From: Patescibacteria group bacterium
GTDB lineage: Bacteria; Patescibacteriota; UBA1384; XYA2-FULL-43-10; 1-14-0-10-43-13
Length of the DNA stretch: 64,000 nt
Assembly: GCA_041666325.1 (NCBI GenBank)
Contig: JBAYHC010000002.1
Span: 51,635-115,634 of the forward strand
Direction: 5' to 3'
Of the stretch, positions 7,939 to 58,935 are shown one piece after another (positions within the stretch are counted from its first letter, which is position 1; every line of letters begins with the position of its first letter). The position numbers and the translations under genes are program-made. The notes beneath the pieces are model-generated. The model had not been told where the DNA came from. It did not search any database and was given only the letters and a program-made list of their open reading frames with translations.

Positions 7939-8889
7939 CTACCTGGCGGTGTGAACCTGCATCGGCAGGTGCGGCGGGTCCGCGCTGGCGTTTACCGGCT
8001 GGACCTGCAGCCCGCGTGCGCGGGTGATGACCCGCACCTGGCGGCGGAAGTGGTCATCGGTCCCGACCGTGCCCCACCACAGGTAGACGCCATTGGAGGC
8101 GAACTTCCAGCGGCGGGGCTGGTCCGTGCCTGTCACGGGCGTGGGCTGGGGCAGCGTGCCGCCGACGGGGGTAAAGGCGTACTGGACGCCCTCGGTTACC
8201 TCCGCGTTGGCGGCATCGTAGACCTTGGGCAGGATCTCCTGACCGTTGCCGGCGAGACACTGGTCGCCGAAGAGCGAGAGCTCGTCCGGCGTGGTGTCCT
8301 CCGGATCGTAGCTCCAGAGCTTGAGCAGGTGGGGGCTGACCCGCACCTTGCACGTCAGCTCGAACCTGGCGAAGCGCAGCCCCGAGGCTTCGGTCGGCTT
8401 CACGCCGACGATCAGGTCGTACGTGCCCGCCGCCGGCTTGTAGATGCCCGGGGCGGCCGGTGTGACAACTGTCGTGCCCGAGCTTGTGACCAGCCGGTAA
8501 TCCAAGATGAACTTGTCACTTGGCTGCCCACCGGCAGTTATGTCCTCGATCCAGCTTGCCAGCCACTCGTCTTTGCAGGCCCAGCGGTTGGTGGCGTTGG
8601 CACCCTCGAGCTCGACCCACTTGCCATTGGGGTCGGCGTTGGAGCTGCCGACCCAGAACGGCACTGTCAGCCGATAGATGCGCGTCTCCGGCTCGAGCCG
8701 GAATGAGTTGGCGTTCCGGTCGATGACCGGAGTCACGGTCGTGCCACCCGGCGGGGGCGGGTTGGTGCCGCCACCGGATGACGAACCGTTCCCGTTGGTG
8801 TTGGAGTTGTCGAGGACCGTTCCGCCTCCGCCCCCACAACCGCCAACACCGATACCAGCACACAACACTACCAGCAAAAGGTACCTCAT
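7939..8889 (-). CDS. High-GC (~67%) secreted lipoprotein, unknown function (foreign-composition islet 1)
   Basis: 316 aa; N-terminus MRYLLLVVLCAGIGVGGCGGG = signal peptide with Cys lipobox and Gly/Ser/Pro-rich linker; GC far above flanks; RBS gaaaggaaggga before ATG. Confidence 0.6.
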   Translation of the reverse strand: MRYLLLVVLCAGIGVGGCGGGGGTVLDNSNTNGNGSSSGGGTNPPPPGGTTVTPVIDRNANSFRLEPETRIYRLTVPFWVGSSNADPNGKWVELEGANATNRWACKDEWLASWIEDITAGGQPSDKFILDYRLVTSSGTTVVTPAAPGIYKPAAGTYDLIVGVKPTEASGLRFARFELTCKVRVSPHLLKLWSYDPEDTTPDELSLFGDQCLAGNGQEILPKVYDAANAEVTEGVQYAFTPVGGTLPQPTPVTGTDQPRRWKFASNGVYLWWGTVGTDDHFRRQVRVITRARGLQVQPVNASADPPHLPMQVHTAR

Positions 8890-11831: not shown

Positions 11832-13688
11832 TTGATGACGAAATCGGGGAAAAATAGACGCACAAGAATAATCGGCGCTGTGGTGGCCAGTTTTTTTGTG
11901 CTGATAATGATTTTGTCCGGAGCATTCGCGGTGTACTCATTTTTCAACTTTGATCGTGTCTACGCCAATCAGTATGTTGGTAATATCAACTTGGCCAAAA
12001 GAACTCGATCTGAGGTTAGAGATATTCTCACAAAGGAAGCGGCTGATTTTTCGAGCAAGGAATTGATTCTGCGCTATAAGGGCGAAAAAGAAGAGAAGAC
12101 ATACAAGATTAAGCCGTCAGAAGTCGGTTTGCACTATGATGCTGAGGCGACCACAAAGAAGGTGTGGGATTTTGGCCGAGAGGGTGACATAGCAAGTTCG
12201 TCCTGGCATCAGATGAAGTCAATTTTTGTCAGAAGCGAACATGAAGCCGTATTCACGATTAATCAAGGCGAGCTTGAGGCTAAGATCAAGACCATAGCCA
12301 AAGAGATCGATCTACCCGAGAAGGACTATTCGATCACATATAAAGAGGGAAAATTTGTTCTCAGCGATCAACAGTCCGAGGGCAGGCGCATCGACCAGGC
12401 AGAAATCACTACTGCCATCCTCAATCACTTGCGTAAATTTGAGAGTAGCGAAGTAGCGTTCGTTTCCAAGATCTATGCTCCAAAAGTAAAGAAGGAGAAG
12501 GCACTGGCGCGACTCTTGGCGGCCAATAGAATTCTCGAAAAAGGTGAGCTTATAGCTTTCTACGAGGGGCAGGAATTTAAATTTGACAAGGATATGATCG
12601 GCGGAACAATTAAATCGCAAATCAACAAAGATGATCTTGAGATCTTGTTGGACGACAAGCGTTTGAACACATTTTTGGATACCGTCGGGGGAGCGATCAA
12701 TGTCGAGCCGAGAAGCGCGAAACTAACGATCAACAACAGTCGGGCAACCATCTTTGAGACATCAAGAGACGGCAAGAGCTTGAGTGGGGACATTAGCAAG
12801 GAGAGAATAAAAAGTGCCCTGCTTTCGAGAGCTGAGGACGACTCAGATCATTCTCGCGTAGAGCTGGTGGTAGAGGTAAAAAAGCCAGAAATTGCCGAGA
12901 ATGATATTGGTAATCTGGGCATAACTGAGTTAGTCGCTTCTGCCTCAACTGAATTCAAGGGCTCTCCAGCGAATCGAATTCACAATATTCAAACCGGTGC
13001 AGCTGCGATCAATGGTGTTTTGGTAAAACCGGGGGAAACTTTTTCGACTTTGGCACGCCTTGGCGCTATCGATGGATCAACGGGATACTTACCAGAGTTA
13101 GTTATCAAAGAAGATCGAACCGTGCCTGAGTTTGGTGGCGGGTTGTGTCAAGTCTCGACAACTCTTTTCCGTTCTGCTCTCAATGCCGGAATGAAGATTG
13201 TGGAAAGGAGTAATCACAGCTATCGCGTTGGTTATTACGAGCCTCCGGTTGGTATGGATGCGACCATTTATGACCCGGCGCCTGACTTCAAGTTTTCTAA
13301 CAATTATTCCAGTCATATTCTTATTCAGTCAAAAGTCGAGGGAACCAAAATAACTTTCGAGCTGTACGGGACCAAAGATGGCCGCCAGGTCGAGATCGGG
13401 CAGCCTGTGGTTTATGATTACACCAACCCATCAGAGCCGATAAACATCGAAACCGATACTTTGCCGCCCGGTGAGAGAAAGCAGATCGAGAAGCCGCACC
13501 AGGGCGCTTCGGCAAAATTTCATTATAAGTCTGTCCGTAACGATGAAGTGCTCCAAGAGCGAGATTTCTTCTCCAAGTATGTCCCTTGGCCAGAGAAGTG
13601 GCTAGTGGGTAAACAGCCAGTGCAGCCGCAGCCAGAGACGGTACCGCAGCCGGAGCCGGCGCCAGCGTCAGAATCACAACCACAATAA
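11832..13688 (+). CDS. VanW/YoaR-like family protein with N-terminal TM anchor and Pro/Gln-rich C-terminus
   Basis: 618 aa; VanW-domain core FGGGLCQVSTTLFRSALNAGMKIVERSNHSYRVGYYEP; single N-terminal TM. Confidence 0.65.
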   Translation: MMTKSGKNRRTRIIGAVVASFFVLIMILSGAFAVYSFFNFDRVYANQYVGNINLAKRTRSEVRDILTKEAADFSSKELILRYKGEKEEKTYKIKPSEVGLHYDAEATTKKVWDFGREGDIASSSWHQMKSIFVRSEHEAVFTINQGELEAKIKTIAKEIDLPEKDYSITYKEGKFVLSDQQSEGRRIDQAEITTAILNHLRKFESSEVAFVSKIYAPKVKKEKALARLLAANRILEKGELIAFYEGQEFKFDKDMIGGTIKSQINKDDLEILLDDKRLNTFLDTVGGAINVEPRSAKLTINNSRATIFETSRDGKSLSGDISKERIKSALLSRAEDDSDHSRVELVVEVKKPEIAENDIGNLGITELVASASTEFKGSPANRIHNIQTGAAAINGVLVKPGETFSTLARLGAIDGSTGYLPELVIKEDRTVPEFGGGLCQVSTTLFRSALNAGMKIVERSNHSYRVGYYEPPVGMDATIYDPAPDFKFSNNYSSHILIQSKVEGTKITFELYGTKDGRQVEIGQPVVYDYTNPSEPINIETDTLPPGERKQIEKPHQGASAKFHYKSVRNDEVLQERDFFSKYVPWPEKWLVGKQPVQPQPETVPQPEPAPASESQPQ

Positions 13689-26130: not shown

Positions 26131-26168
26131 AACAATAGGTTTGAGAGAGAGTGATAAAAGTGTATAAT
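26131..26168 (+). promoter_or_regulatory. Sigma70-like promoter TTGAGA-16-TATAAT immediately upstream of 26173 ORF
   Basis: ggtTTGAGAgagagtgataaaagtgTATAATtcacATG. Confidence 0.45.
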
Positions 26169-29904: not shown

Positions 29905-30756
29905 TCAAAAGATGTATCGAACACCCTGTTGGGTCCAGCCGGCAAAGCCGGTGATGTCCTGATTCTCCCAATTGTCGGCATAGTGTATCAGGTGCATTTT
30001 GCCTCGGATTTCCGCCGGGAGTGTTTGCAGGTCGGCAAGCGGTGCGTGAACGGCACCGGGGAAGAATTGAACATCGTGGAACATAACACTCGACCTATCA
30101 GCATAGAAGTCAATCAATTGCCGGTCAAAGCGTGTGTCGCAGGAAACGAAGACGTGGCCATCGATAAACAAACCATAGCTCAGGAATGAATCTCCCCATC
30201 CCGTGGAGTTATCCGGGGTATGCATAGTGCGGAAGATCTCCAGATCGATGCCAGCGTAATTGCAGCTGAATATCTCGCGTGGTTGCTGCACTTTCCAGCG
30301 TGGTTGGACGATCGAGAAGTAATCAACGAGTGAGAGCCTTCGGCCGTCTGCTTCCTGCTCATTGTACTCAAGGCCGCCACGCAGCGAGCATTCCCAGAGT
30401 ACACGCTGATATTCAGGGGAAACGATCATCTTGAGTTTGTCTTTGCCAAGCATGCGCCGACCTTTGTAGCGGTTGGCTAAGGCTAACGTTTCGATTCCGC
30501 CTATGTGGTCAGCGTGCGAATGGGTGGGCAAGAGCACCTCAATGTCGGTCGGAGCAAGGTTGGCAGTTTGCCGCAATGCGATCTGGGCCTTCTGGCCAAA
30601 ATCAACCAAGATGTGGGTTTTGCCCTTAATGATAAGGAAATTGGTCTGGAAGTTGCGCTCGGCGTCCGCCGAGCCAACGCCGAGGAAGAAGAGTTCGAGT
30701 TGGCCATCATTTTGAAGACTGTATTTCTCTCCTGGCAACATGCCTCTTGTTTCCAT
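29905..30756 (-). CDS. MBL-fold metallo-hydrolase
   Basis: HxHxDH motif LLPTHSHADHIGG; start ATG 30756 (METRGMLPGEKY) after RBS aaaggga. Confidence 0.7.
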   Translation of the reverse strand: METRGMLPGEKYSLQNDGQLELFFLGVGSADAERNFQTNFLIIKGKTHILVDFGQKAQIALRQTANLAPTDIEVLLPTHSHADHIGGIETLALANRYKGRRMLGKDKLKMIVSPEYQRVLWECSLRGGLEYNEQEADGRRLSLVDYFSIVQPRWKVQQPREIFSCNYAGIDLEIFRTMHTPDNSTGWGDSFLSYGLFIDGHVFVSCDTRFDRQLIDFYADRSSVMFHDVQFFPGAVHAPLADLQTLPAEIRGKMHLIHYADNWENQDITGFAGWTQQGVRYIF

Positions 30757-30864
30757 TGGATGACTCCCTTTCTGTGGGTCAACGTTGAAGCACGCACGAA
30801 CCATACCACAGTGCCACCTAGGTGTCAAATGTAACGCGAAGGAATCGATGATTGACGTGGCCTT

Positions 30865-48948: not shown

Positions 48949-49740
48949 ATGAACAATCTTCGCAAACAAGCGGATGATCATCGCAATAGCGGTCGGGTTA
49001 CAGAGGCGGTGAGGCTTTATGAACAAATCTACGCTACGGAGGATAGTGCTAGCAACTGGCAGTCTGCCGGCGAGGCTCTACAGATGATCGGAGTGAGCTA
49101 TAAGATCAATAACGACACTAAAAATGCTTTGAAATACCTCAAAAGAGCAGTCGACTATTACAAGCGTCATGATATTGAGGTAGGCATAGCCAATGCTCTT
49201 CGCGATATCGGCATAACTTACGAATACATAAACAGGCTAACTTTAGCTGAAGAAAACTTAAGAAAGAGTTTGCTCATCTCAAAAAGAATCAGTGATGACG
49301 AGTCTTGGGGAATTACCCTTGCCAAAATAGGGTTCGTGGAAACGCGCCAGAAAAAATACCGACAGGCAGAAAAGAATCTGAGTGAGGCAGTAATAATCTT
49401 GAAAGGGTCTGGGCGGAACTGGTTCTATACTGCTACGGCCTTGGGTCACTTGGCAAATTTATATATCGAGATTAAGCATTTCGACAGGGCGATCGAGATA
49501 TTAAATGAGTCACTGAAAATGTTTGATGATCATGGCAATGAGGCTCAAACACGCCGCTATGCTCAGGGTTGGGGTCTTTTGGCTTTTGCCTATGCAAATT
49601 TGGGGCAGATTGATAAGGCGAAGGATTTCTTGCATAAATCTCTGCACATTGTCCTGTCGTCCGACTTTTCTCAGAGCGCAGCCGCAGTAGTTCTACGTGA
49701 TATTCGGGCAGATAAGACAATTACTAAACTAATGAAATGA
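48949..49740 (+). CDS. Tetratricopeptide-repeat protein
   Basis: Repeated A/L/Y/G TPR-like periodicity (ALKYLKRAVDYYKRH..., ALRDIGITYEY...). Confidence 0.55.
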   Translation: MNNLRKQADDHRNSGRVTEAVRLYEQIYATEDSASNWQSAGEALQMIGVSYKINNDTKNALKYLKRAVDYYKRHDIEVGIANALRDIGITYEYINRLTLAEENLRKSLLISKRISDDESWGITLAKIGFVETRQKKYRQAEKNLSEAVIILKGSGRNWFYTATALGHLANLYIEIKHFDRAIEILNESLKMFDDHGNEAQTRRYAQGWGLLAFAYANLGQIDKAKDFLHKSLHIVLSSDFSQSAAAVVLRDIRADKTITKLMK

Positions 49741-51253: not shown

Positions 51254-51307
51254 CTGCGCATCGTCAATCGGGGCATTGGGCCACATTCAGTGAAGGAGGA
51301 AACGGCT

Positions 51308-52108
51308 GTGAAGAGAACATTGTGCGGATTGATGCTTGGTTTCGCTCTGGTGGCGCAGGGGTGCGGTGGCGGGAGCAACAGCCCCGTGGTACCTGCCGCG
51401 ACCGAAGGACGCTTCTTGGTCGCCTTCGAGCAGTACGACGCGCAGATCAGCGACCACGTCACCCCGGTGATTGAGAGCGGTGTCGAGTTCCGTATCGACA
51501 TCGCCGGCCTGTCATCGCCGCGGTCACGGGGAGGGATCGATCCCTCATCTGCCACCTATCGCTGGCTCAAGGATGGCCGGCCGTTCGATCCGGGCATTGT
51601 CGTGACGGCGGGTCAGGAGCGGCGTGGTTGGATGATCGGAATCCCCAACCGGCACGAGGACTTTGGTGACACGGCCTTCCAGGTCGTGGCCGAGATCACC
51701 GACCAGGGGCAGACCTTCATCGCCCGCCGGACCTTCTTCGTCCGGCCCTGGTCCACGGTCAAACCGGCAGCACCGATTCTGCAGACGGATGCCTTCTCGG
51801 GTGACCCGGCCAGGTCGCGCTATTACAACGAGGTCGGGGGCTATTACGTCGGCATTCTGGACGCGAGGATCGACATCCTCAACGGCGGTGGCGCCGAGGG
51901 CGCGCGCGAGGCCAAGGGGCGTGGCCCCGGCGGATCGTACTGGGAGGTATCCACCAATGGCACTCGCTTGCCGCTTACACCAAGCAGGCCGGGCTGGTGG
52001 ACGGTGTCGCTGGTGAGCCCCGGGGGTTACGTTTCCCGGCCGGCTTGGCTCTGGGTCTACGACCCGGCCAACCCGGGGGCAACCCCGCCCGCCCGCCCGG
52101 ATTGGTAG
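51308..52108 (+). CDS. High-GC (~66%) secreted lipoprotein, unknown function (foreign-composition islet 2)
   Basis: GTG start after RBS GAAGGAGG (8-nt spacer); VKRTLCGLMLGFALVAQGCGGGSNS signal peptide with Cys lipobox; alternative GTG at 51290. Confidence 0.6.
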   Translation: MKRTLCGLMLGFALVAQGCGGGSNSPVVPAATEGRFLVAFEQYDAQISDHVTPVIESGVEFRIDIAGLSSPRSRGGIDPSSATYRWLKDGRPFDPGIVVTAGQERRGWMIGIPNRHEDFGDTAFQVVAEITDQGQTFIARRTFFVRPWSTVKPAAPILQTDAFSGDPARSRYYNEVGGYYVGILDARIDILNGGGAEGAREAKGRGPGGSYWEVSTNGTRLPLTPSRPGWWTVSLVSPGGYVSRPAWLWVYDPANPGATPPARPDW

Positions 52109-54712: not shown

Positions 54713-55501
54713 ATGTTTATTGATACCCATTGCCATCTAAATTTTCCAGAGTTCAAGAATGAGATCTCGGCCGTAATCGGCCGAGCTGTTGATGCTGGTG
54801 TTAACAGAATGGTAAATGTTGGTATTGACCTTGACACGTCGAAACGCTCACTTGAGCTTGCTCGTCGTTATCCTGAAGTCTACGCTACGGTCGGCATTCA
54901 CCCCCATTGCTCTCCGGACTTAAGTATCGAGACCTGGAGCGACTTGTCTGTTCTGGCGGCCCATCCCAAGGTTGTGGCGATTGGTGAAATTGGCCTTGAC
55001 TACTATTACCTCAAACGATCTTCCCGCTATGCCGACTCCCCTTCTCGTGAAGATCAAATCTTTTGTTTTGAGCGCATGCTTGATCTTGCTTTGGAGACAA
55101 AACTCCCGGTTATAATTCACAGTCGCGAGGCTGACGCGGACATGCTGGGGATACTTAAGAGCTATAGCGGTTCGCTACGCGGTGTTTTTCATTGTTTCTC
55201 TGGCGATACGTACTTTGCCGAGAAGGTGCTCGATCTTGGTTTCGCGATCTCTTTTACTGGAAACATCACATATAAAAAATCAGTTGATACCTGTGAGGCC
55301 ATCGAGCGGATTCCTCTGGGCTCGATCATGATTGAGACAGACGCTCCGTATTTAGCGCCTGAGCCATTTCGGGGCCAGCGCAATGAGCCTGCTCATGTGG
55401 TAGATGTAGCGCAGAAGATAGCCGAAATCAAGAAATTAAGCCTGGCTGAGGTTGAGCGAGAGACGACTAAAAAGGCAAAGAAACTATTTGGTATTGAGTA
55501 A
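54713..55501 (+). CDS. tatD: TatD-family metal-dependent hydrolase/DNase
   Basis: MFIDTHCHLNF, VAIGEIGLDYYY, IIHSREA, FHCFSGD, ETDAPYL motifs. Confidence 0.88.
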   Translation: MFIDTHCHLNFPEFKNEISAVIGRAVDAGVNRMVNVGIDLDTSKRSLELARRYPEVYATVGIHPHCSPDLSIETWSDLSVLAAHPKVVAIGEIGLDYYYLKRSSRYADSPSREDQIFCFERMLDLALETKLPVIIHSREADADMLGILKSYSGSLRGVFHCFSGDTYFAEKVLDLGFAISFTGNITYKKSVDTCEAIERIPLGSIMIETDAPYLAPEPFRGQRNEPAHVVDVAQKIAEIKKLSLAEVERETTKKAKKLFGIE

Positions 55502-55525
55502 TTAGCACTAATCTGTTCATTGGCA

Positions 55526-55571
55526 TTGACAAAATGCCTTTTTTGTGCTATACTCGCGAAGTTATCGCGAG
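55526..55571 (+). promoter_or_regulatory. Consensus promoter TTGACA-17-TATACT plus +1 hairpin CTCGCGA-agtta-TCGCGAG for islet-3 operon
   Basis: TTGACAaaatgccttttttgtgcTATACTcgcgaagttatcgcgag. Confidence 0.65.
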
Positions 55572-55599
55572 CGTGTGATAACTCTGAAGGGGGAAGATC

Positions 55600-55788
55600 G
55601 TGTTAAAAGTCATGTTGACTATCATCGCCGGTTGGGCGGTGTTCGGCTTTTCGGTTTGGTTCTTTGTCACCAACAAGACGTGGGACATCGGGGGCAACCA
55701 GCTCCTCGCCACGATAATGTTGGCTGCAGCAGGGATACTGCTTGTCATCTTCGGCATCATCGCACTGATCGAAAGGAGACGCCGGTGA
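55600..55788 (+). CDS. Holin-like small membrane protein (62 aa, 2 TM, C-terminal ERRRR), high GC
   Basis: GTG start after RBS gaagggggaag; MLKVMLTIIAGWAVFGFSVWFFVTNKTWDIGGNQLLATIMLAAAGILLVIFGIIALIERRRR; stop TGA overlaps GTG of next gene (GTGA). Confidence 0.45.
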   Translation: MLKVMLTIIAGWAVFGFSVWFFVTNKTWDIGGNQLLATIMLAAAGILLVIFGIIALIERRRR

Positions 55789-56906
55789 GAGGCATTCTGT
55801 GGAAGACGTTCGTTGGATTGTTTGTGTGGCTTGGCGGCAAATTGCCTGGGTGGAAGAAGTCTGCCCGGCAGCAGTACCGCCGTCACGGGGGTGTTATCCG
55901 GGGTTTGGGGTACGCTGCAATCGGTCTGGTTCTTCTGTCTCTGGCCAGTCACTACTTCGGTGATGACCATAAGCAGATGACCAAGAAGTCACACAAGCCG
56001 GGCAGGGTGGCCACACGGCCCGATCACCCGACGAAGCCGGAGTGGCAGACTTCGACGCCAAAGAAGCCGAATCGTACGTGGCGGGAACGGGGTCTGACGA
56101 CGGCGCAATTGCGCCAGATCTACCGCCACCCGCGGGTCCAGCAGGGGCCGCACGGTCCTGAGCTGGTGGGGCAGACCAAGCCCCACCCCAACCCGTGGAA
56201 GCCGACGTCGCGCGGGTTGCTCAGTGGCCTAATCGTCGTCGTCGACCCAGGTCACGGCGGCGTGGATCCCGGCAGCTCCTTCGAGCATGCCGGCGCCGGC
56301 TTCTGGGAATCGGCCTACACATACAGGGCCGCCTACGAGCTCATGCAGCTTCTGCGGGCCAAGGGGGCTACAGTCCACCTGACCTGTTGGAGTGACGTCA
56401 TGACTTTGCCGGAACCGCCGCGGGCCGCTGTCCCCATGCCGCTGCCACGTGACGCCCGAACTATTCGCGAAGGTCTGGCTGTCAGATTGTCGACGCGGGT
56501 GCTCAACGCCCGTATCGACTACGCCGATGACTTGGCTAAGCGGTACGGGGGAAAGAGGGTCCTTTTTGTCTCGCTCCATACTGATTGGGAGAGGCAGGGG
56601 CTTTCCGGCGCTTTCGTCTGCATCAACCCCGGCGAGCCGGCTCCGCTCCTGGCCACGTGCATCGCGGCCGAGCTGGAGCGGAAGAACTACCGCCGGCGCG
56701 ACAACGGCAAGCCGCGTTCCTGCGTCGTGCCTCAGGCGAAGAAGTATGTGCTCTTCGCCGGCAAGACGCCGCAGCGGGTCATCGTCGAGATGGCGACGAC
56801 CACGGCGCCGGCTGACGGCTTCCGTATTCGCTGGGAGCGCAACCGGATGGATCTCCTGAAGACCATCCTGGCGGGGATCGAGAGCTATGCCGCGGAGACG
56901 TGGTGA
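55785..56906 (+). CDS. N-acetylmuramoyl-L-alanine amidase (Amidase_3 family) with N-terminal TM anchor and basic Pro-rich linker, high GC (~63%)
   Basis: GTG start after RBS AAGGAG; catalytic-domain motifs VVVDPGHGGVDPGS, FWESAY, LFVSLHTD; TM segment GLGYAAIGLVLLSLASHYF. Confidence 0.7.
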   Translation: MRGILWKTFVGLFVWLGGKLPGWKKSARQQYRRHGGVIRGLGYAAIGLVLLSLASHYFGDDHKQMTKKSHKPGRVATRPDHPTKPEWQTSTPKKPNRTWRERGLTTAQLRQIYRHPRVQQGPHGPELVGQTKPHPNPWKPTSRGLLSGLIVVVDPGHGGVDPGSSFEHAGAGFWESAYTYRAAYELMQLLRAKGATVHLTCWSDVMTLPEPPRAAVPMPLPRDARTIREGLAVRLSTRVLNARIDYADDLAKRYGGKRVLFVSLHTDWERQGLSGAFVCINPGEPAPLLATCIAAELERKNYRRRDNGKPRSCVVPQAKKYVLFAGKTPQRVIVEMATTTAPADGFRIRWERNRMDLLKTILAGIESYAAETW

Positions 56907-57102
56907 TGAAAGGAGAGATGTTCGTCAAATCCAGGGCCGGCCCTTGCCATGCGCGAGGCCGGCCCGAATTGTTTCGATACGATCTTTGATGTAACATTGC
57001 CTTGCCGGCACGACCAGTGTTGGCAAGCACAGTGTTTCAGAGAGGGGGATCAATCTTTGAGAAGAGAAGAAAAATCGGATCGTCTGCGAAGACGGCATGA
57101 GA

Positions 57103-58061
57103 TAATGGGTTTTCTTGTGCTTTGCACTCTGATTCTACCATTGCTTTTGGTTGTTAGATGGTTCTGGTTGAATATCAAGCAAAGCGAAAAACGTTTGCCA
57201 TCATCTGGGAGCAGAGCTCAGTCCTTGTCCTCTGCCTGGTTACGCTCATTTACGATTCCAATCGAGTGCCACAAACATCTTGATCAGCACATTGTTTCCA
57301 ACGGGCGAGTTCCGGATCTTGGCGAGCGTATGGGCAAAGTGGATAAGCTCAAAAAACTGATCGACCAGCTTTGCGCAGAGAGAGGAATCAGCCCGGAATT
57401 GGCTTATGGTCTTATTCTCCATGAGTCGCATGGCGACGTGTGGAGTGTTGATTTCAAGACCAAGCTCGGCCAGGTTCCGGTGACGCAAGCTCATGTTGGG
57501 CTGGGCCAACTGAGTCAAGATTTTCTGCCGGAAGCGATGCGGGTGGATCCAGCTCGCTTGCGTGCTGCTGACGCGTGGCAGAGGGCGACACTCGATCGCA
57601 TTGCCCGCAAGCAGTGGCCGCCGACTGCGGCGGAACGTGTTTTGCTTAGCAAGTGGGCAGCCCTCGATTTGCGCTTCAATGCCAGATGGAATCTAGAGAA
57701 AACGCTTGATTATGTCAAGCAAAATCTCGAGATAACAGGCAATGAAACACTCGCTATCCTGGCACATTTGCGAGGAACTCGCTATCCATTGTGGTGGGTG
57801 GCGCGTTATCGCTTTGACCATGAACGAGTGCCTTACAACGAGGCTGACCGAATTCGACTTCATCGAACAACTGCGCCATATGTTAAGTCTGAGGGCATTG
57901 ACCTTTTTGACCTGATCGTTGACACGGGAGCCGAGGGCTCTCGCTATCGCAGCGATCGCAAGGCCCAAGTTTATTGCTTTTCTATCCTTGCTTGGAGTGA
58001 GCTATATGCTCGCCATCGCAAAACACTTCGTCCGCCCCGATTCAACGGGGCGGCTTTTTAA
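57103..58061 (+). CDS. Putative lytic-transglycosylase-like (SLT-like) protein with N-terminal TM; hypothetical
   Basis: GLILHESHGD...AHVGLGQLSQDF loosely matches SLT E-S...GLMQ pattern but spacing atypical; start at MGFLVLCTLILPLLLVV. Confidence 0.3.
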
Positions 58062-58104
58062 AACTTGAAGTTACGAGGCTAGTTTGCTACGCTACACATA
58101 TCAA

Positions 58105-58935
58105 ATGAATAAATTAGACACAAAAATTTTTGACGGTCGGGCAATCCGCAACCAGATTTTGGATGAATTGAAAAGCAAAATTAGCTCATCGAGTCATGTG
58201 CCTGTTTTGGCTGTTTTCCTTGTCGGTGACGATCCCGTATCAACCAATTACGTTGCGATCAAACAAAAAATTGCTGAGAAATTGGGGATTCAGGTTCGTC
58301 TGTTCCATTTCCCTGAATATGTTTCCGAGAAGGAGATCATAGACACGATTATTGATTTGAATAATAGGCCCATGATCAGCGGCATCATGGTTCAAATCCC
58401 ATTGCCCAAGGGCATAGATCGCGACAATATCATCAGGACAATTGATCCTGCCAAGGATGTTGACGGGTTGCGTTATTGCTTGGGACTGGAATCGGGGTTT
58501 CTGCCGCCGGTTGTTCTTGCAATCGAGAAAGCAATGGCTGGCGCGGGCGCCAATTTGGAGACAATGAACACCCTGATCATCGGACAAGGCTTTCTTGTCG
58601 GTAATCCACTTGTTAGGTATCTACACAACAAATATGAAAAAGTAAGAAAACTAACAATTCTTTCAAAACCGGTTGATAATTTAACAGCTATCACAACGAA
58701 GGCAGATATAATTATCTCTGCTGTTGGCAAAGCAGGCTTAATCGGTGGCAACATGATTAAGGCCGGTGCCATCCTAATAGACGCCGGTACCAGTGAGATA
58801 GGTGGAGAACTCAAGGGAGACATTGATCAAAGTGCTTACGACAAGGCTGCATTTATTACTCCTGTTCCCGGGGGAATTGGTCCTGTGACAGTTGCTATGC
58901 TGATGCAGAATTTGTTAGAAAACCCTATTGGCTAG
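58105..58935 (+). CDS. folD: Bifunctional methylenetetrahydrofolate dehydrogenase/cyclohydrolase
   Basis: AVFLVGDDPVSTNYVAIKQK..., PVPGGIGPVTVAMLMQN. Confidence 0.9.
   Translation: MNKLDTKIFDGRAIRNQILDELKSKISSSSHVPVLAVFLVGDDPVSTNYVAIKQKIAEKLGIQVRLFHFPEYVSEKEIIDTIIDLNNRPMISGIMVQIPLPKGIDRDNIIRTIDPAKDVDGLRYCLGLESGFLPPVVLAIEKAMAGAGANLETMNTLIIGQGFLVGNPLVRYLHNKYEKVRKLTILSKPVDNLTAITTKADIIISAVGKAGLIGGNMIKAGAILIDAGTSEIGGELKGDIDQSAYDKAAFITPVPGGIGPVTVAMLMQNLLENPIG

Follow-up and report, generated by a model that had tools for sequence, protein, structure and literature searches.

The locus described here would be read, in what is roughly an even call, as a chromosomal operon of three genes for peptidoglycan hydrolysis in a Patescibacterium, comprising a small gene (orf62), an amidase gene, and a third open reading frame (ORF3), and not as the remnant of a prophage. 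For these three genes, a wall-remodelling unit of an ordinary kind is more likely than a phage lysis cassette. The neighbours of the locus are housekeeping genes (MetRS, EamA, TatD, FolD, and RecG), with ComEA present too. The features are collected in Table 1, where positions are those of the window, that is, the whole stretch of 64,000 nucleotides that was analysed.

Table 1. Features of the orf62–amidase–ORF3 locus, in order along the window.
Feature	Position	Strand	Basis or description
Terminator-like hairpin, weak, end of the upstream TatD gene	55522..55545	+	6-bp stem, 3 GC pairs, T6
Sigma-70-type promoter, TTGACA-17-(TG)TATACT	55526..55554	+	11/12 positions matching; TG extension
Inverted repeat, AGTTATC-N10-GATAACT	55560..55583	+	Perfect, 7 bp; at about +1 to +25
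orf62, small membrane protein, 62 aa	55600..55788	+	GTG start; GGGGG 6 nt upstream
N-acetylmuramoyl-L-alanine amidase (Amidase_3), 373 aa	55785..56906	+	PF01520 match
Amidase membrane anchor, aa 38–57, GLGYAAIGLVLLSLASHYFG	55896..55955	+	Mean Kyte–Doolittle hydropathy 1.77
Amidase basic Pro/Thr-rich tether, aa 65–146	55977..56222	+	82 aa, net charge +13, pI 11.7
Amidase_3 catalytic domain, aa 151–366	56235..56882	+	Profile and alignment
Spacer hairpins, two, strong, GC-rich	56934–56965 and 56983–57043	+	dG −65.5 kcal/mol, z −5.55
ORF3, divergent GH23/SLT-type lytic transglycosylase, 334 aa	57057..58061	+	TTG start; fold and motifs
Intrinsic terminator	58032..58062	+	8 GC pairs and T-run; z −3.79; overlaps ORF3 stop

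The promoter reported in an earlier note on this DNA, with TTGACA and TATACT hexamers separated by 17 bp, is indeed present upstream of orf62. Its surroundings are AT-rich and native-like (GC of 0.41–0.46), and eight sites of this quality, mostly upstream of genes, exist in the window versus 1.2 in shuffled sequences, which indicates that this genome uses such promoters. The −35 hexamer falls within the terminator-like hairpin of the TatD gene, and the region from 55500 to 55560 has a folding z-score of −2.0. The inverted repeat that follows occurs only once in the window, at least one match being found in 19 of 100 shuffles. A hairpin at +1 had been described here; the repeat exists, but its folding is no better than that of shuffles (z of −1.16), and it could be either a hairpin in the 5′UTR or an operator. 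No Rfam family matched this 5′UTR or the structured spacer further downstream.

The first gene encodes a protein with two hydrophobic helices (aa 4–23 and 35–57, from hydropathy), which are separated by a short loop and followed by an ERRRR tail. GC3 is 0.73 in its frame versus 0.45 and 0.42 in the other two frames, which supports real coding; the two-helix protein with a poly-arginine tail that had been proposed is upheld by hydropathy and by this difference between frames. Its N-terminus, M1-L-K-V-M5, is a possible dual start, and JGI's caller begins at M5. A search among 5.8 billion proteins returned only orf62 itself, an ORFan, and no family in Pfam, PHROGs, or NCBIfam, holin families included, matched it at E ≤ 0.1. 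What is left of the label “holin-like” is a matter of size, two-helix topology, charged tail, and position, with no match to a holin family of Pfam or PHROGs; two helices and a charged C-terminal tail beside a wall hydrolase do fit the outline of a pinholin, but this outline is not specific to holins. The stop codon of orf62 overlaps the start codon of the amidase gene as GTGA (55785–55788), just as had been noted, and an AGGAG lies at 55774–55778; the amidase is translationally coupled to orf62.

The assignment of the second gene to Amidase_3 is secured by the PF01520 profile (51.1 bits versus a cutoff of 27, E-value of 2.2e-13), of which positions 1–173 of 174 are covered by aa 151–366, and the DPGHGGVDPG, WESAY, and SLHTD motifs are all there. 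The zinc ligands are H157 (codon at 56253), E175 (56307), H265 (56577), and D267, and the catalytic Glu is E335 (56787). H157, E175, H265, and E335 are invariant in an alignment with the relatives of the protein, D267 coming after H265, and in an alignment with PDB sequences the regions of the H, the E, and the C-terminal E match LytH. The catalytic domain contains a Pro-rich insertion of 31 aa and lacks the autoinhibitory segment of the AmiC type, the distance from SLH to VE being about 70 aa versus about 115 aa in the AmiC-like proteins P0002 and P0006. The membrane anchor and the basic, Pro-rich linker of the earlier description were both found again. The anchor, in which Gly, Ala, and Ser account for 8 of 20 positions, is weakly hydrophobic and begins behind a highly basic N-region of 37 aa, and the tether that links it to the catalytic domain contains 13 Pro, 10 Thr, 9 Arg, and 8 Lys. 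Gene callers differ on the start of the protein (373, 333, 309, or 453 aa), and the alternative starts have no Shine–Dalgarno site. A start at M65 would leave no anchor.

Among solved structures, the best relatives of the amidase are Cwp6 and LytH (33 bits to LytH), and its best match in NCBIfam is the CwlD model TIGR02883 (37 bits, below the cutoff of 221.55); these are anchored or cell-wall autolysin types and not phage enzymes. The nearest relatives in sequence are 27–30% identical, to which a match of 43%, limited to 17% of the query, can be added. They are AmiC-like genes with N-terminal extensions, and those examined have smpB on one side and a TPR gene on the other, in contigs of about 70% GC. 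As a possible cassette or donor, these relatives were rejected, being AmiC-like, mostly of 27–30% identity, and in unrelated contexts.

The third gene had been described as SLT-like, and this is borne out by the evidence of family and fold, although the protein itself has no match in Pfam, PF01464 included, even at E ≤ 10. Its best-supported start is the TTG at 57057 and not the ATG at 56949. With AlphaFold, the single sequence gave a pLDDT of 42, which was of no use, and an alignment of 11 sequences gave a usable model; in this predicted structure, a lysozyme-like GH23 fold was found. The motifs are the catalytic E123-S124 (codon at 57423) and GLGQ at 148–151, of which E123, S124, G148, and Q151 are invariant across the alignment of the family. 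The ES motif of the family profile was aligned on the ES of g-lysozyme, and the best stretch versus MltE is the same region. Moreover, five of 11 family members match PF01464 weakly (best E-value of 3.2e-05). ORF3 shares Glu-Ser and G-L-G-Q with the family 1 GH23/SLT enzymes MltD, MltE/EmtA, MltC, and Slt70 and with goose-type lysozyme; however, its identity with the solved GH23 enzymes is only 13–17%, the Pfam SLT model is blind to it, and it is larger, with extra helices and a domain of about 265 aa versus the 160–175 aa or so that are aligned. It also differs from the outer-membrane lipoprotein transglycosylases in having an N-terminal helix as its anchor (aa 17–40, strongly hydrophobic, 2.59 by hydropathy) in an organism of the monoderm type.

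The family of ORF3, with 12 representatives among 1.84 billion, is a very small one, and the JGI collections of metagenome and viral contigs contain no member of it; the AHHGG motif of the family is AHLRG in ORF3. The members are found on short contigs of 40–50% GC together with tRNA synthetases, a GT4 glycosyltransferase, and VanW, with no amidase adjoining them in the contexts examined. Some carry a fused M15-like peptidase motif, which is consistent with wall metabolism.

No promoter-like site was found in the spacer between the amidase gene and ORF3. The two hairpins of this spacer have no U-tract, and the high-GC segment is bounded on its 3′ side by the first of them, GC falling beyond about 57000. 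Co-transcription of ORF3 through these two very stable hairpins is an assumption, and it counts against the reading as an operon. The terminator that overlaps the end of ORF3 marks the end of the operon.

The orf62 and amidase genes appear, from their composition, to have been imported from a high-GC organism. GC3 in these genes is, respectively, 4.9 and 6.1 standard units above the background of 0.50 ± 0.05 (z of +4.9 for 0.73 in orf62 and of +6.1 for 0.78 in the amidase), which supports the foreign origin that had been suggested for the pair, and ORF3 has native codon usage (GC3 of 0.50). The pair is indeed high in GC (62.4% over 55600–56906), but the background is 46.3% and not the 43% or so of the earlier note. 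Signatures of a mobile element are lacking: the segment is not flanked by repeats, direct or inverted, its borders carry no tRNA, and no integrase was found. The window holds three high-GC islands, all of which encode exported proteins or lipoproteins; the two other high-GC lipoproteins belong to no family in Pfam or NCBIfam, and a scan of JGI contigs found no relatives of the first. In a scan of 185,579 species genomes anchored on RecG, no relative had the TatD–FolD neighbourhood, the nearest being 59% identical and on a 2.9-kb contig, and the others at most 44%. A homologous orf62–amidase cassette was found in none of the collections searched, which counts against the wall-remodelling reading.

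In the wall-remodelling reading that we favour, a high-GC unit of about 1.4 kb (orf62, the amidase gene, and the GC-rich hairpin) would have been inserted downstream of a native promoter and ahead of a native transglycosylase gene. One native-type sigma-70 promoter would then drive all three genes, with transcription stopping at the terminator after ORF3. Each of the two enzymes has an N-terminal hydrophobic anchor behind basic residues, their topology being based on hydropathy. The amidase would be held in the membrane by an N-terminal signal-anchor, with its Zn-dependent Amidase_3 domain outside on the 82-aa basic tether, and, from this topology, is predicted to strip stem peptides off MurNAc; ORF3, anchored by its single N-terminal helix, is predicted to cut the glycan strands as a GH23-type lytic transglycosylase. 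Together, they might dismantle the wall near the producer's own membrane in order to split the septum, to turn over the wall, or to make an opening for envelope-spanning machines. Since orf62 is coupled to the amidase and has the same foreign codon usage, it is most likely the membrane partner of the amidase, which it may regulate or activate in a stoichiometric way.

By analogy, such a partnership would most likely parallel those of LytH with ActH in S. aureus and of CwlD with GerS in Bacillus and Clostridioides. These enzymes and the amidase have in common a single N-terminal TM helix and an extracytoplasmic Amidase_3 domain (here by hydropathy), together with an active site of the exposed type that has no AmiB/AmiC autoinhibitory insertion. 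LytH also has an Asp two residues past the second Zn-His, as is the case here (SLH265-T-D267, cf. D195 in LytH), and an Asp of the D195 type is the fourth metal ligand in activator-dependent amidases (PMC9245657). Given the coupled orf62, a dedicated partner would be plausible here too. However, the resemblance is a weak one, at 33 bits for LytH and at 37 bits (cutoff of 221) for the CwlD model, and the amidase has no SH3 domain but has instead the 82-aa basic Pro/Thr-rich tether and the 31-aa Pro-rich insertion. Moreover, orf62, a two-helix ORFan of 62 aa, is unlike ActH (rhomboid-like plus TPR) and unlike the lipoprotein GerS. A nearby TPR protein (48949–49740) was considered as an ActH-like activator and rejected, having no signal peptide or TM helix and being 6 kb away.

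It is extremely improbable that the locus is an artefact, in which the high-GC segment would be a chimeric join or a contaminant or in which orf62 would be spurious within the 5′ leader or within a longer amidase ORF. The GC shift is abrupt, one gene caller gave a merged ORF of 453 aa that starts at 55545, and orf62 has no homologues. However, the locus is identical over 12–18 kb in assemblies from NCBI (on a contig of 107 kb), ENA (MEGAHIT-style, on one of 232 kb), and Logan, and identical proteins are encoded on another NCBI/JGI contig, which is 264 kb long; because of this identity across public assemblies, the chimeric join about which the earlier note had raised a doubt can be dismissed. 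The ORFs are complete and precisely placed, with the promoter before them and the next gene after them, the extension to 453 aa begins inside the −10 box and encodes an Arg/His-rich peptide that is not protein-like, and orf62 has a strong Shine–Dalgarno site and two clean hydrophobic helices in addition to the bias in GC3 of its frame. Another explanation, which is unlikely, is that of a domesticated or orphan phage-type lysis module for programmed lysis or for the release of cell contents, in which orf62 would be a class II holin or pinholin (N-in/C-in, and maybe a holin/antiholin pair from M1 and M5), the amidase would be a secretory or SAR endolysin that is inactive at the membrane until depolarisation by orf62, and ORF3 would be a second lytic activity. 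Indeed, a small two-helix protein whose gene overlaps the start of a wall hydrolase is the classic order of phage lysis genes, as in S21/R21 of phage 21 and other holin–endolysin cassettes. The basic C-terminal tail and the possible dual start are also shared with class II holins and pinholins, the M-L-K-V-M of orf62 resembling the Met-Lys-Met and Met-Lys-Ser-Met dual starts in lambda S and S21. The Gly/Ala/Ser-rich anchor of low hydropathy recalls the weakly hydrophobic N-terminal segment of SAR endolysins, the amidase resembles phage-type Amidase_3 enzymes in having no AmiC-type autoinhibitory insertion and has a weak match to a PHROG endolysin (phrog_435, E-value of 0.007), orf62 and the amidase gene appear to have been co-acquired as a unit, and the perfect inverted repeat at +1 could be an operator. 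Nevertheless, orf62 falls in no holin family of Pfam, PHROGs, or NCBIfam, a tblastn search with the amidase against 50,697 phage records and against plasmids gave no match, and a scan of viral contigs was empty, so the origin from a phage-type module that had been suggested is not sustained; the remark that nothing else nearby looks phage-like does hold, there being no phage family in the rest of the window. The near-consensus promoter, of the housekeeping type used for ordinary genes, would be lethal with an unregulated holin and is hard to reconcile with a lysis cassette. In addition, an Amidase_3 enzyme with a highly basic N-region of 37 aa and an 82-aa tether around its anchor is unlike SAR lysozymes and known SAR domains, the anchor of ORF3 is strongly hydrophobic, and, since both hydrolases have their own Sec-type membrane anchors, no holin would be needed for export.

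It is also quite unlikely that the locus serves an episymbiont in attacking or feeding on another cell by contact. In such a reading, the two anchored hydrolases, of which one has the long basic tether, would extend past the wall of the producer and open the peptidoglycan of a host or partner at the attachment site, and the amidase, derived from a donor of high GC that may have been of the host lineage itself, would be matched to the host wall. The genome is labelled Patescibacteria, the cultivated members of which are all episymbionts according to a passage in PMC11623550; the Pro/Thr/Lys/Arg-rich tether might reach tens of nanometres if extended, and the three high-GC islands suggest that surface functions were taken up more than once from a source of the same composition. 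However, the locus has no gene for a secretion system, a toxin, or immunity beside it, the enzymes would be kept on the membrane of the producer and not secreted, it is not possible to name a donor or a host (the nearest relatives of the amidase being ordinary AmiC-like genes), and no result separates self from non-self wall as the substrate or favours the lysin against a partner's wall that the earlier note had raised. A combination of these ideas, which is a long shot, would have an episymbiont take up envelope genes again and again from a high-GC lineage that has not been sampled and that may be its host's. One such acquisition, a pinholin-like protein with a SAR-like tethered amidase, of no described holin or endolysin lineage, would have come under the promoter that serves the cell's own lytic transglycosylase, giving a non-phage device under chromosomal control, either for breaching the wall of the host where the two cells touch or for programmed lysis.

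The wall hydrolases of the Patescibacteria have been little studied, and division, wall remodelling, and the opening of host walls in these ultra-small episymbionts are largely obscure. Judged from its sequence, the operon of an amidase and a GH23 transglycosylase would belong to known kinds, with orf62 and the amidase having essentially no relatives in collections of billions of proteins. The locus is a clear case of unameliorated foreign DNA, set in a streamlined genome with a native promoter on one side and a native gene on the other, and ORF3 represents a rare branch of GH23, invisible to Pfam, that can now be modelled with confidence. The small membrane protein, the tethered amidase, and the tethered transglycosylase make up a compact trio that can be cloned. 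Should orf62 turn out to activate the amidase or to act as a holin, it would be the founding member of a new family; if it does neither, this would be an ordinary autolysin operon.

Three plus-strand genes fill the 2.58-kb gap between the TatD gene and the FolD gene: orf62, which encodes a 62-aa small membrane protein, the gene for a 373-aa Amidase_3 protein (hereafter the amidase), and ORF3, which encodes a 334-aa GH23/SLT-type protein. These genes could, with about an even chance, form a membrane-tethered wall-remodelling operon in which orf62 is the partner of the amidase.

Features of the locus between the TatD and FolD genes (window positions)
Feature	Position	Strand	Details
TatD gene	54713-55501		upstream neighbour
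Promoter	55526-55554		TTGACA-17-TATACT with TG extension, upstream of orf62
Inverted repeat	55560-55583		perfect, AGTTATC-N10-GATAACT, after the -10 hexamer
orf62	55600-55788	+	GTG start, six bases after GGGGG
Amidase-ORF3 spacer	56905-57050		two long GC-rich hairpins; dG -65.5 kcal/mol, z about -5.6
ORF3	start 57057	+	334 aa; TTG start, after GGGGG; NCBI start identical
Intrinsic terminator	over ORF3 stop codon	+	8 GC pairs and T-run, z -3.8
FolD gene	58084-58935		downstream neighbour

The sequence around the promoter is AT-rich and native-like, and the -35 hexamer falls within a weak terminator-like hairpin of TatD. Promoters of such quality number 8 in the 64-kb window versus 1.2 in shuffles and mostly lie just 5' of genes; the genome therefore uses them routinely. 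Window-wide, the eight sigma-70 matches at 11-12 of 12 positions lie at 26141, 29828, 32988, 37800, 37850, 41976, 45611 and 55526, most of them intergenic, and the use of near-consensus promoters by this Patescibacterium seems unusually frequent. The inverted repeat after the -10 hexamer does not fold as RNA better than shuffles (z -1.16); its motif occurs once in the window, and 19% of shuffles contain one.

The orf62 product has hydrophobic segments at aa 4-23 and 35-57, followed by an ERRRR tail. Its own frame has a GC3 of 0.73, versus 0.45 and 0.42 in the others, which marks orf62 as genuinely coding rather than, as in the product of one gene caller, a piece of a 453-aa ORF. No homologue of orf62 was found among 5.8 billion proteins, nor membership in a known family. 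Its TGA overlaps the GTG of the amidase at 55785, with AGGAG at 55774-55778; the amidase starts chosen by other callers, L41 and M65, lack a ribosome-binding site. Public calls for this gene (window 55545-56906) give 453, 373, 333 or 309 aa according to source, the longest absorbing orf62 and the shortest deleting the membrane anchor, and annotation-based surveys would therefore misjudge its topology.

By its sequence, the second protein is a member of Amidase_3: it matches the full Pfam domain with 51 bits (cutoff 27), and H157, E175, H265 and E335 are invariant in an alignment with its few relatives, D267 following H265 (SLHTD). The stretch from SLH to the catalytic Glu is short: the autoinhibitory insertion of AmiB/AmiC type, present in the AmiC-like relatives, is missing from it, and a 31-aa Pro-rich insertion private to the amidase occurs instead. 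N-terminal to the domain come, in order, a very basic segment, a helix at aa 38-57 that is rich in Gly, Ala and Ser and weakly hydrophobic (mean hydropathy 1.77), and an 82-aa tether with 13 Pro, 10 Thr, 9 Arg and 8 Lys (net charge +13). The positive-inside rule predicts an outward-facing catalytic domain.

The best solved relatives of the amidase are C. difficile Cwp6 and S. aureus LytH, and the top NCBIfam model is CwlD, with a score far under its cutoff. In LytH, one TM helix precedes the amidase domain, and D195 is a fourth metal ligand; this Asp recurs in AmiB and AmiC, which depend on activators, whereas Asn takes its place in many other amidases (PMC9245657). In its architecture and its Asp ligand the amidase is similar to LytH/CwlD, but it does not reach equivalog-level membership.

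ORF3 has a strongly hydrophobic N-terminal helix. It has itself no sequence match in Pfam, PHROG, NCBIfam or PDB, and a word-indexed search of 5.8 billion proteins recovered only ORF3. Exhaustive searching of 1.84 billion representatives with HMMER yielded 12 relatives with 26-39% identity; the family (relatives labelled P0009-P0018) is very rare and has no gathering-level Pfam cover. E123, S124, G148 and Q151 (ES and GLGQ motifs) are invariant in its alignment, 5 of the 11 aligned proteins weakly match Pfam SLT, and the AlphaFold pLDDT of ORF3 is 90.6 with the family alignment versus 42 without. Together, the motifs, the weak SLT matches and the model obtained with the alignment make ORF3 a divergent GH23 enzyme, a lytic transglycosylase or muramidase, included in the GH23 fold class but not in the Pfam SLT model; the weak SLT-like motif reported in the earlier note was thus rightly read. 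Several family members add a C-terminal M15-like module (SHNFGGAxD; SxHxxGxAxD) and C-terminal TM helices. Their hosts are probably also small-genome bacteria, because tRNA synthetase, GT4 and VanW genes occur on the contigs (L089-L094), whose GC is 40-50%. At 11832-13688 (+), the window itself encodes a VanW/PG_binding_4 protein, and on one unrelated contig (L091, 8406-10439) a VanW/PG_binding_4 pair lies ~2 kb from an ORF3-family member; this proximity may be a recurrent wall-related association.

The amidase-ORF3 spacer contains no U-tract, promoter-like site or Rfam match, and ORF3 is likely to be co-transcribed with the upstream genes. This exceptionally structured stretch may be what is left of a donor terminator, or it may act as an attenuator or stabilise the mRNA.

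The background has a GC of 46.3%, and its GC3, taken over 46 genes, is 0.50 ± 0.05 with a maximum of 0.62. The values for orf62 (0.73, z +4.9) and the amidase (0.78, z +6.1) uphold the earlier description of a high-GC pair, while ORF3 is at 0.50 (z +0.1) and native GC returns at about 57000, just 3' of the first GC-rich hairpin. The simplest reading of this history is a single insertion: orf62, the amidase gene and the hairpin, linked in the donor beforehand, would have entered as a ~1.4-kb unit, with a native promoter on one side and a native transglycosylase gene on the other. Repeats, tRNA and integrase were looked for at its borders and none was found. Identity between the amidase and its nearest relatives is mostly 27-30%, with a single local match of 43% that covers 17% of the query; the relatives examined are AmiC-like genes whose contexts are unrelated. 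The collections searched lack the relatives on which a presence/absence comparison would depend. A random chimera is excluded: not one base of the locus differs among the NCBI, ENA and Logan assemblies, and another NCBI/JGI contig, 264 kb long, encodes identical proteins; an artefact is considered very improbable.

Two more short high-GC islands lie at 7939-8889 (-) and 51290-52108 (+), with GC 0.66 and GC3 0.85 and 0.80 (background 0.50). In each, a single lipoprotein-like ORF comes with a separate promoter-like site and a GC-rich intrinsic terminator; the N-termini are ...LCAGIGVGGCGGGGG and ...LVAQGCGGGS, respectively. Neither ORF has a Pfam or NCBIfam match or resembles the other, and a JGI contig scan with the first gave no relative. 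Counting the orf62-amidase segment, the window has three such islands, and every one encodes envelope proteins. Elsewhere, 29905-30828 (-) encodes a metallo-beta-lactamase-fold protein that matches the anti-Pycsar Apyc1 family (95 bits, cutoff 50); GC3 is mildly elevated around it (0.59-0.62), and several family-less ORFs lie in the same region.

The earlier note had proposed a lysis cassette of a holin-like, an Amidase_3 and an SLT-like protein, and its topology, gene order and overlap stand. A domesticated lysis module would fit these features along with the size and basic tail of orf62, a possible dual start (M-L-K-V-M), the weak SAR-like anchor of the amidase and the joint acquisition of the two genes. 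However, no holin family fits orf62, searches among phages and plasmids gave no relatives, the amidase and ORF3 each have their own export anchor, and the promoter is of a housekeeping type; phage genes are absent across the window, as the same note had remarked for the vicinity. This second-ranked explanation is therefore rather doubtful, and a host-directed tool, ranked third, is less likely again. For the wall-remodelling operon, orf62 offers a small partner candidate that belongs to no known family, in a locus whose mosaic history is unusually clean.
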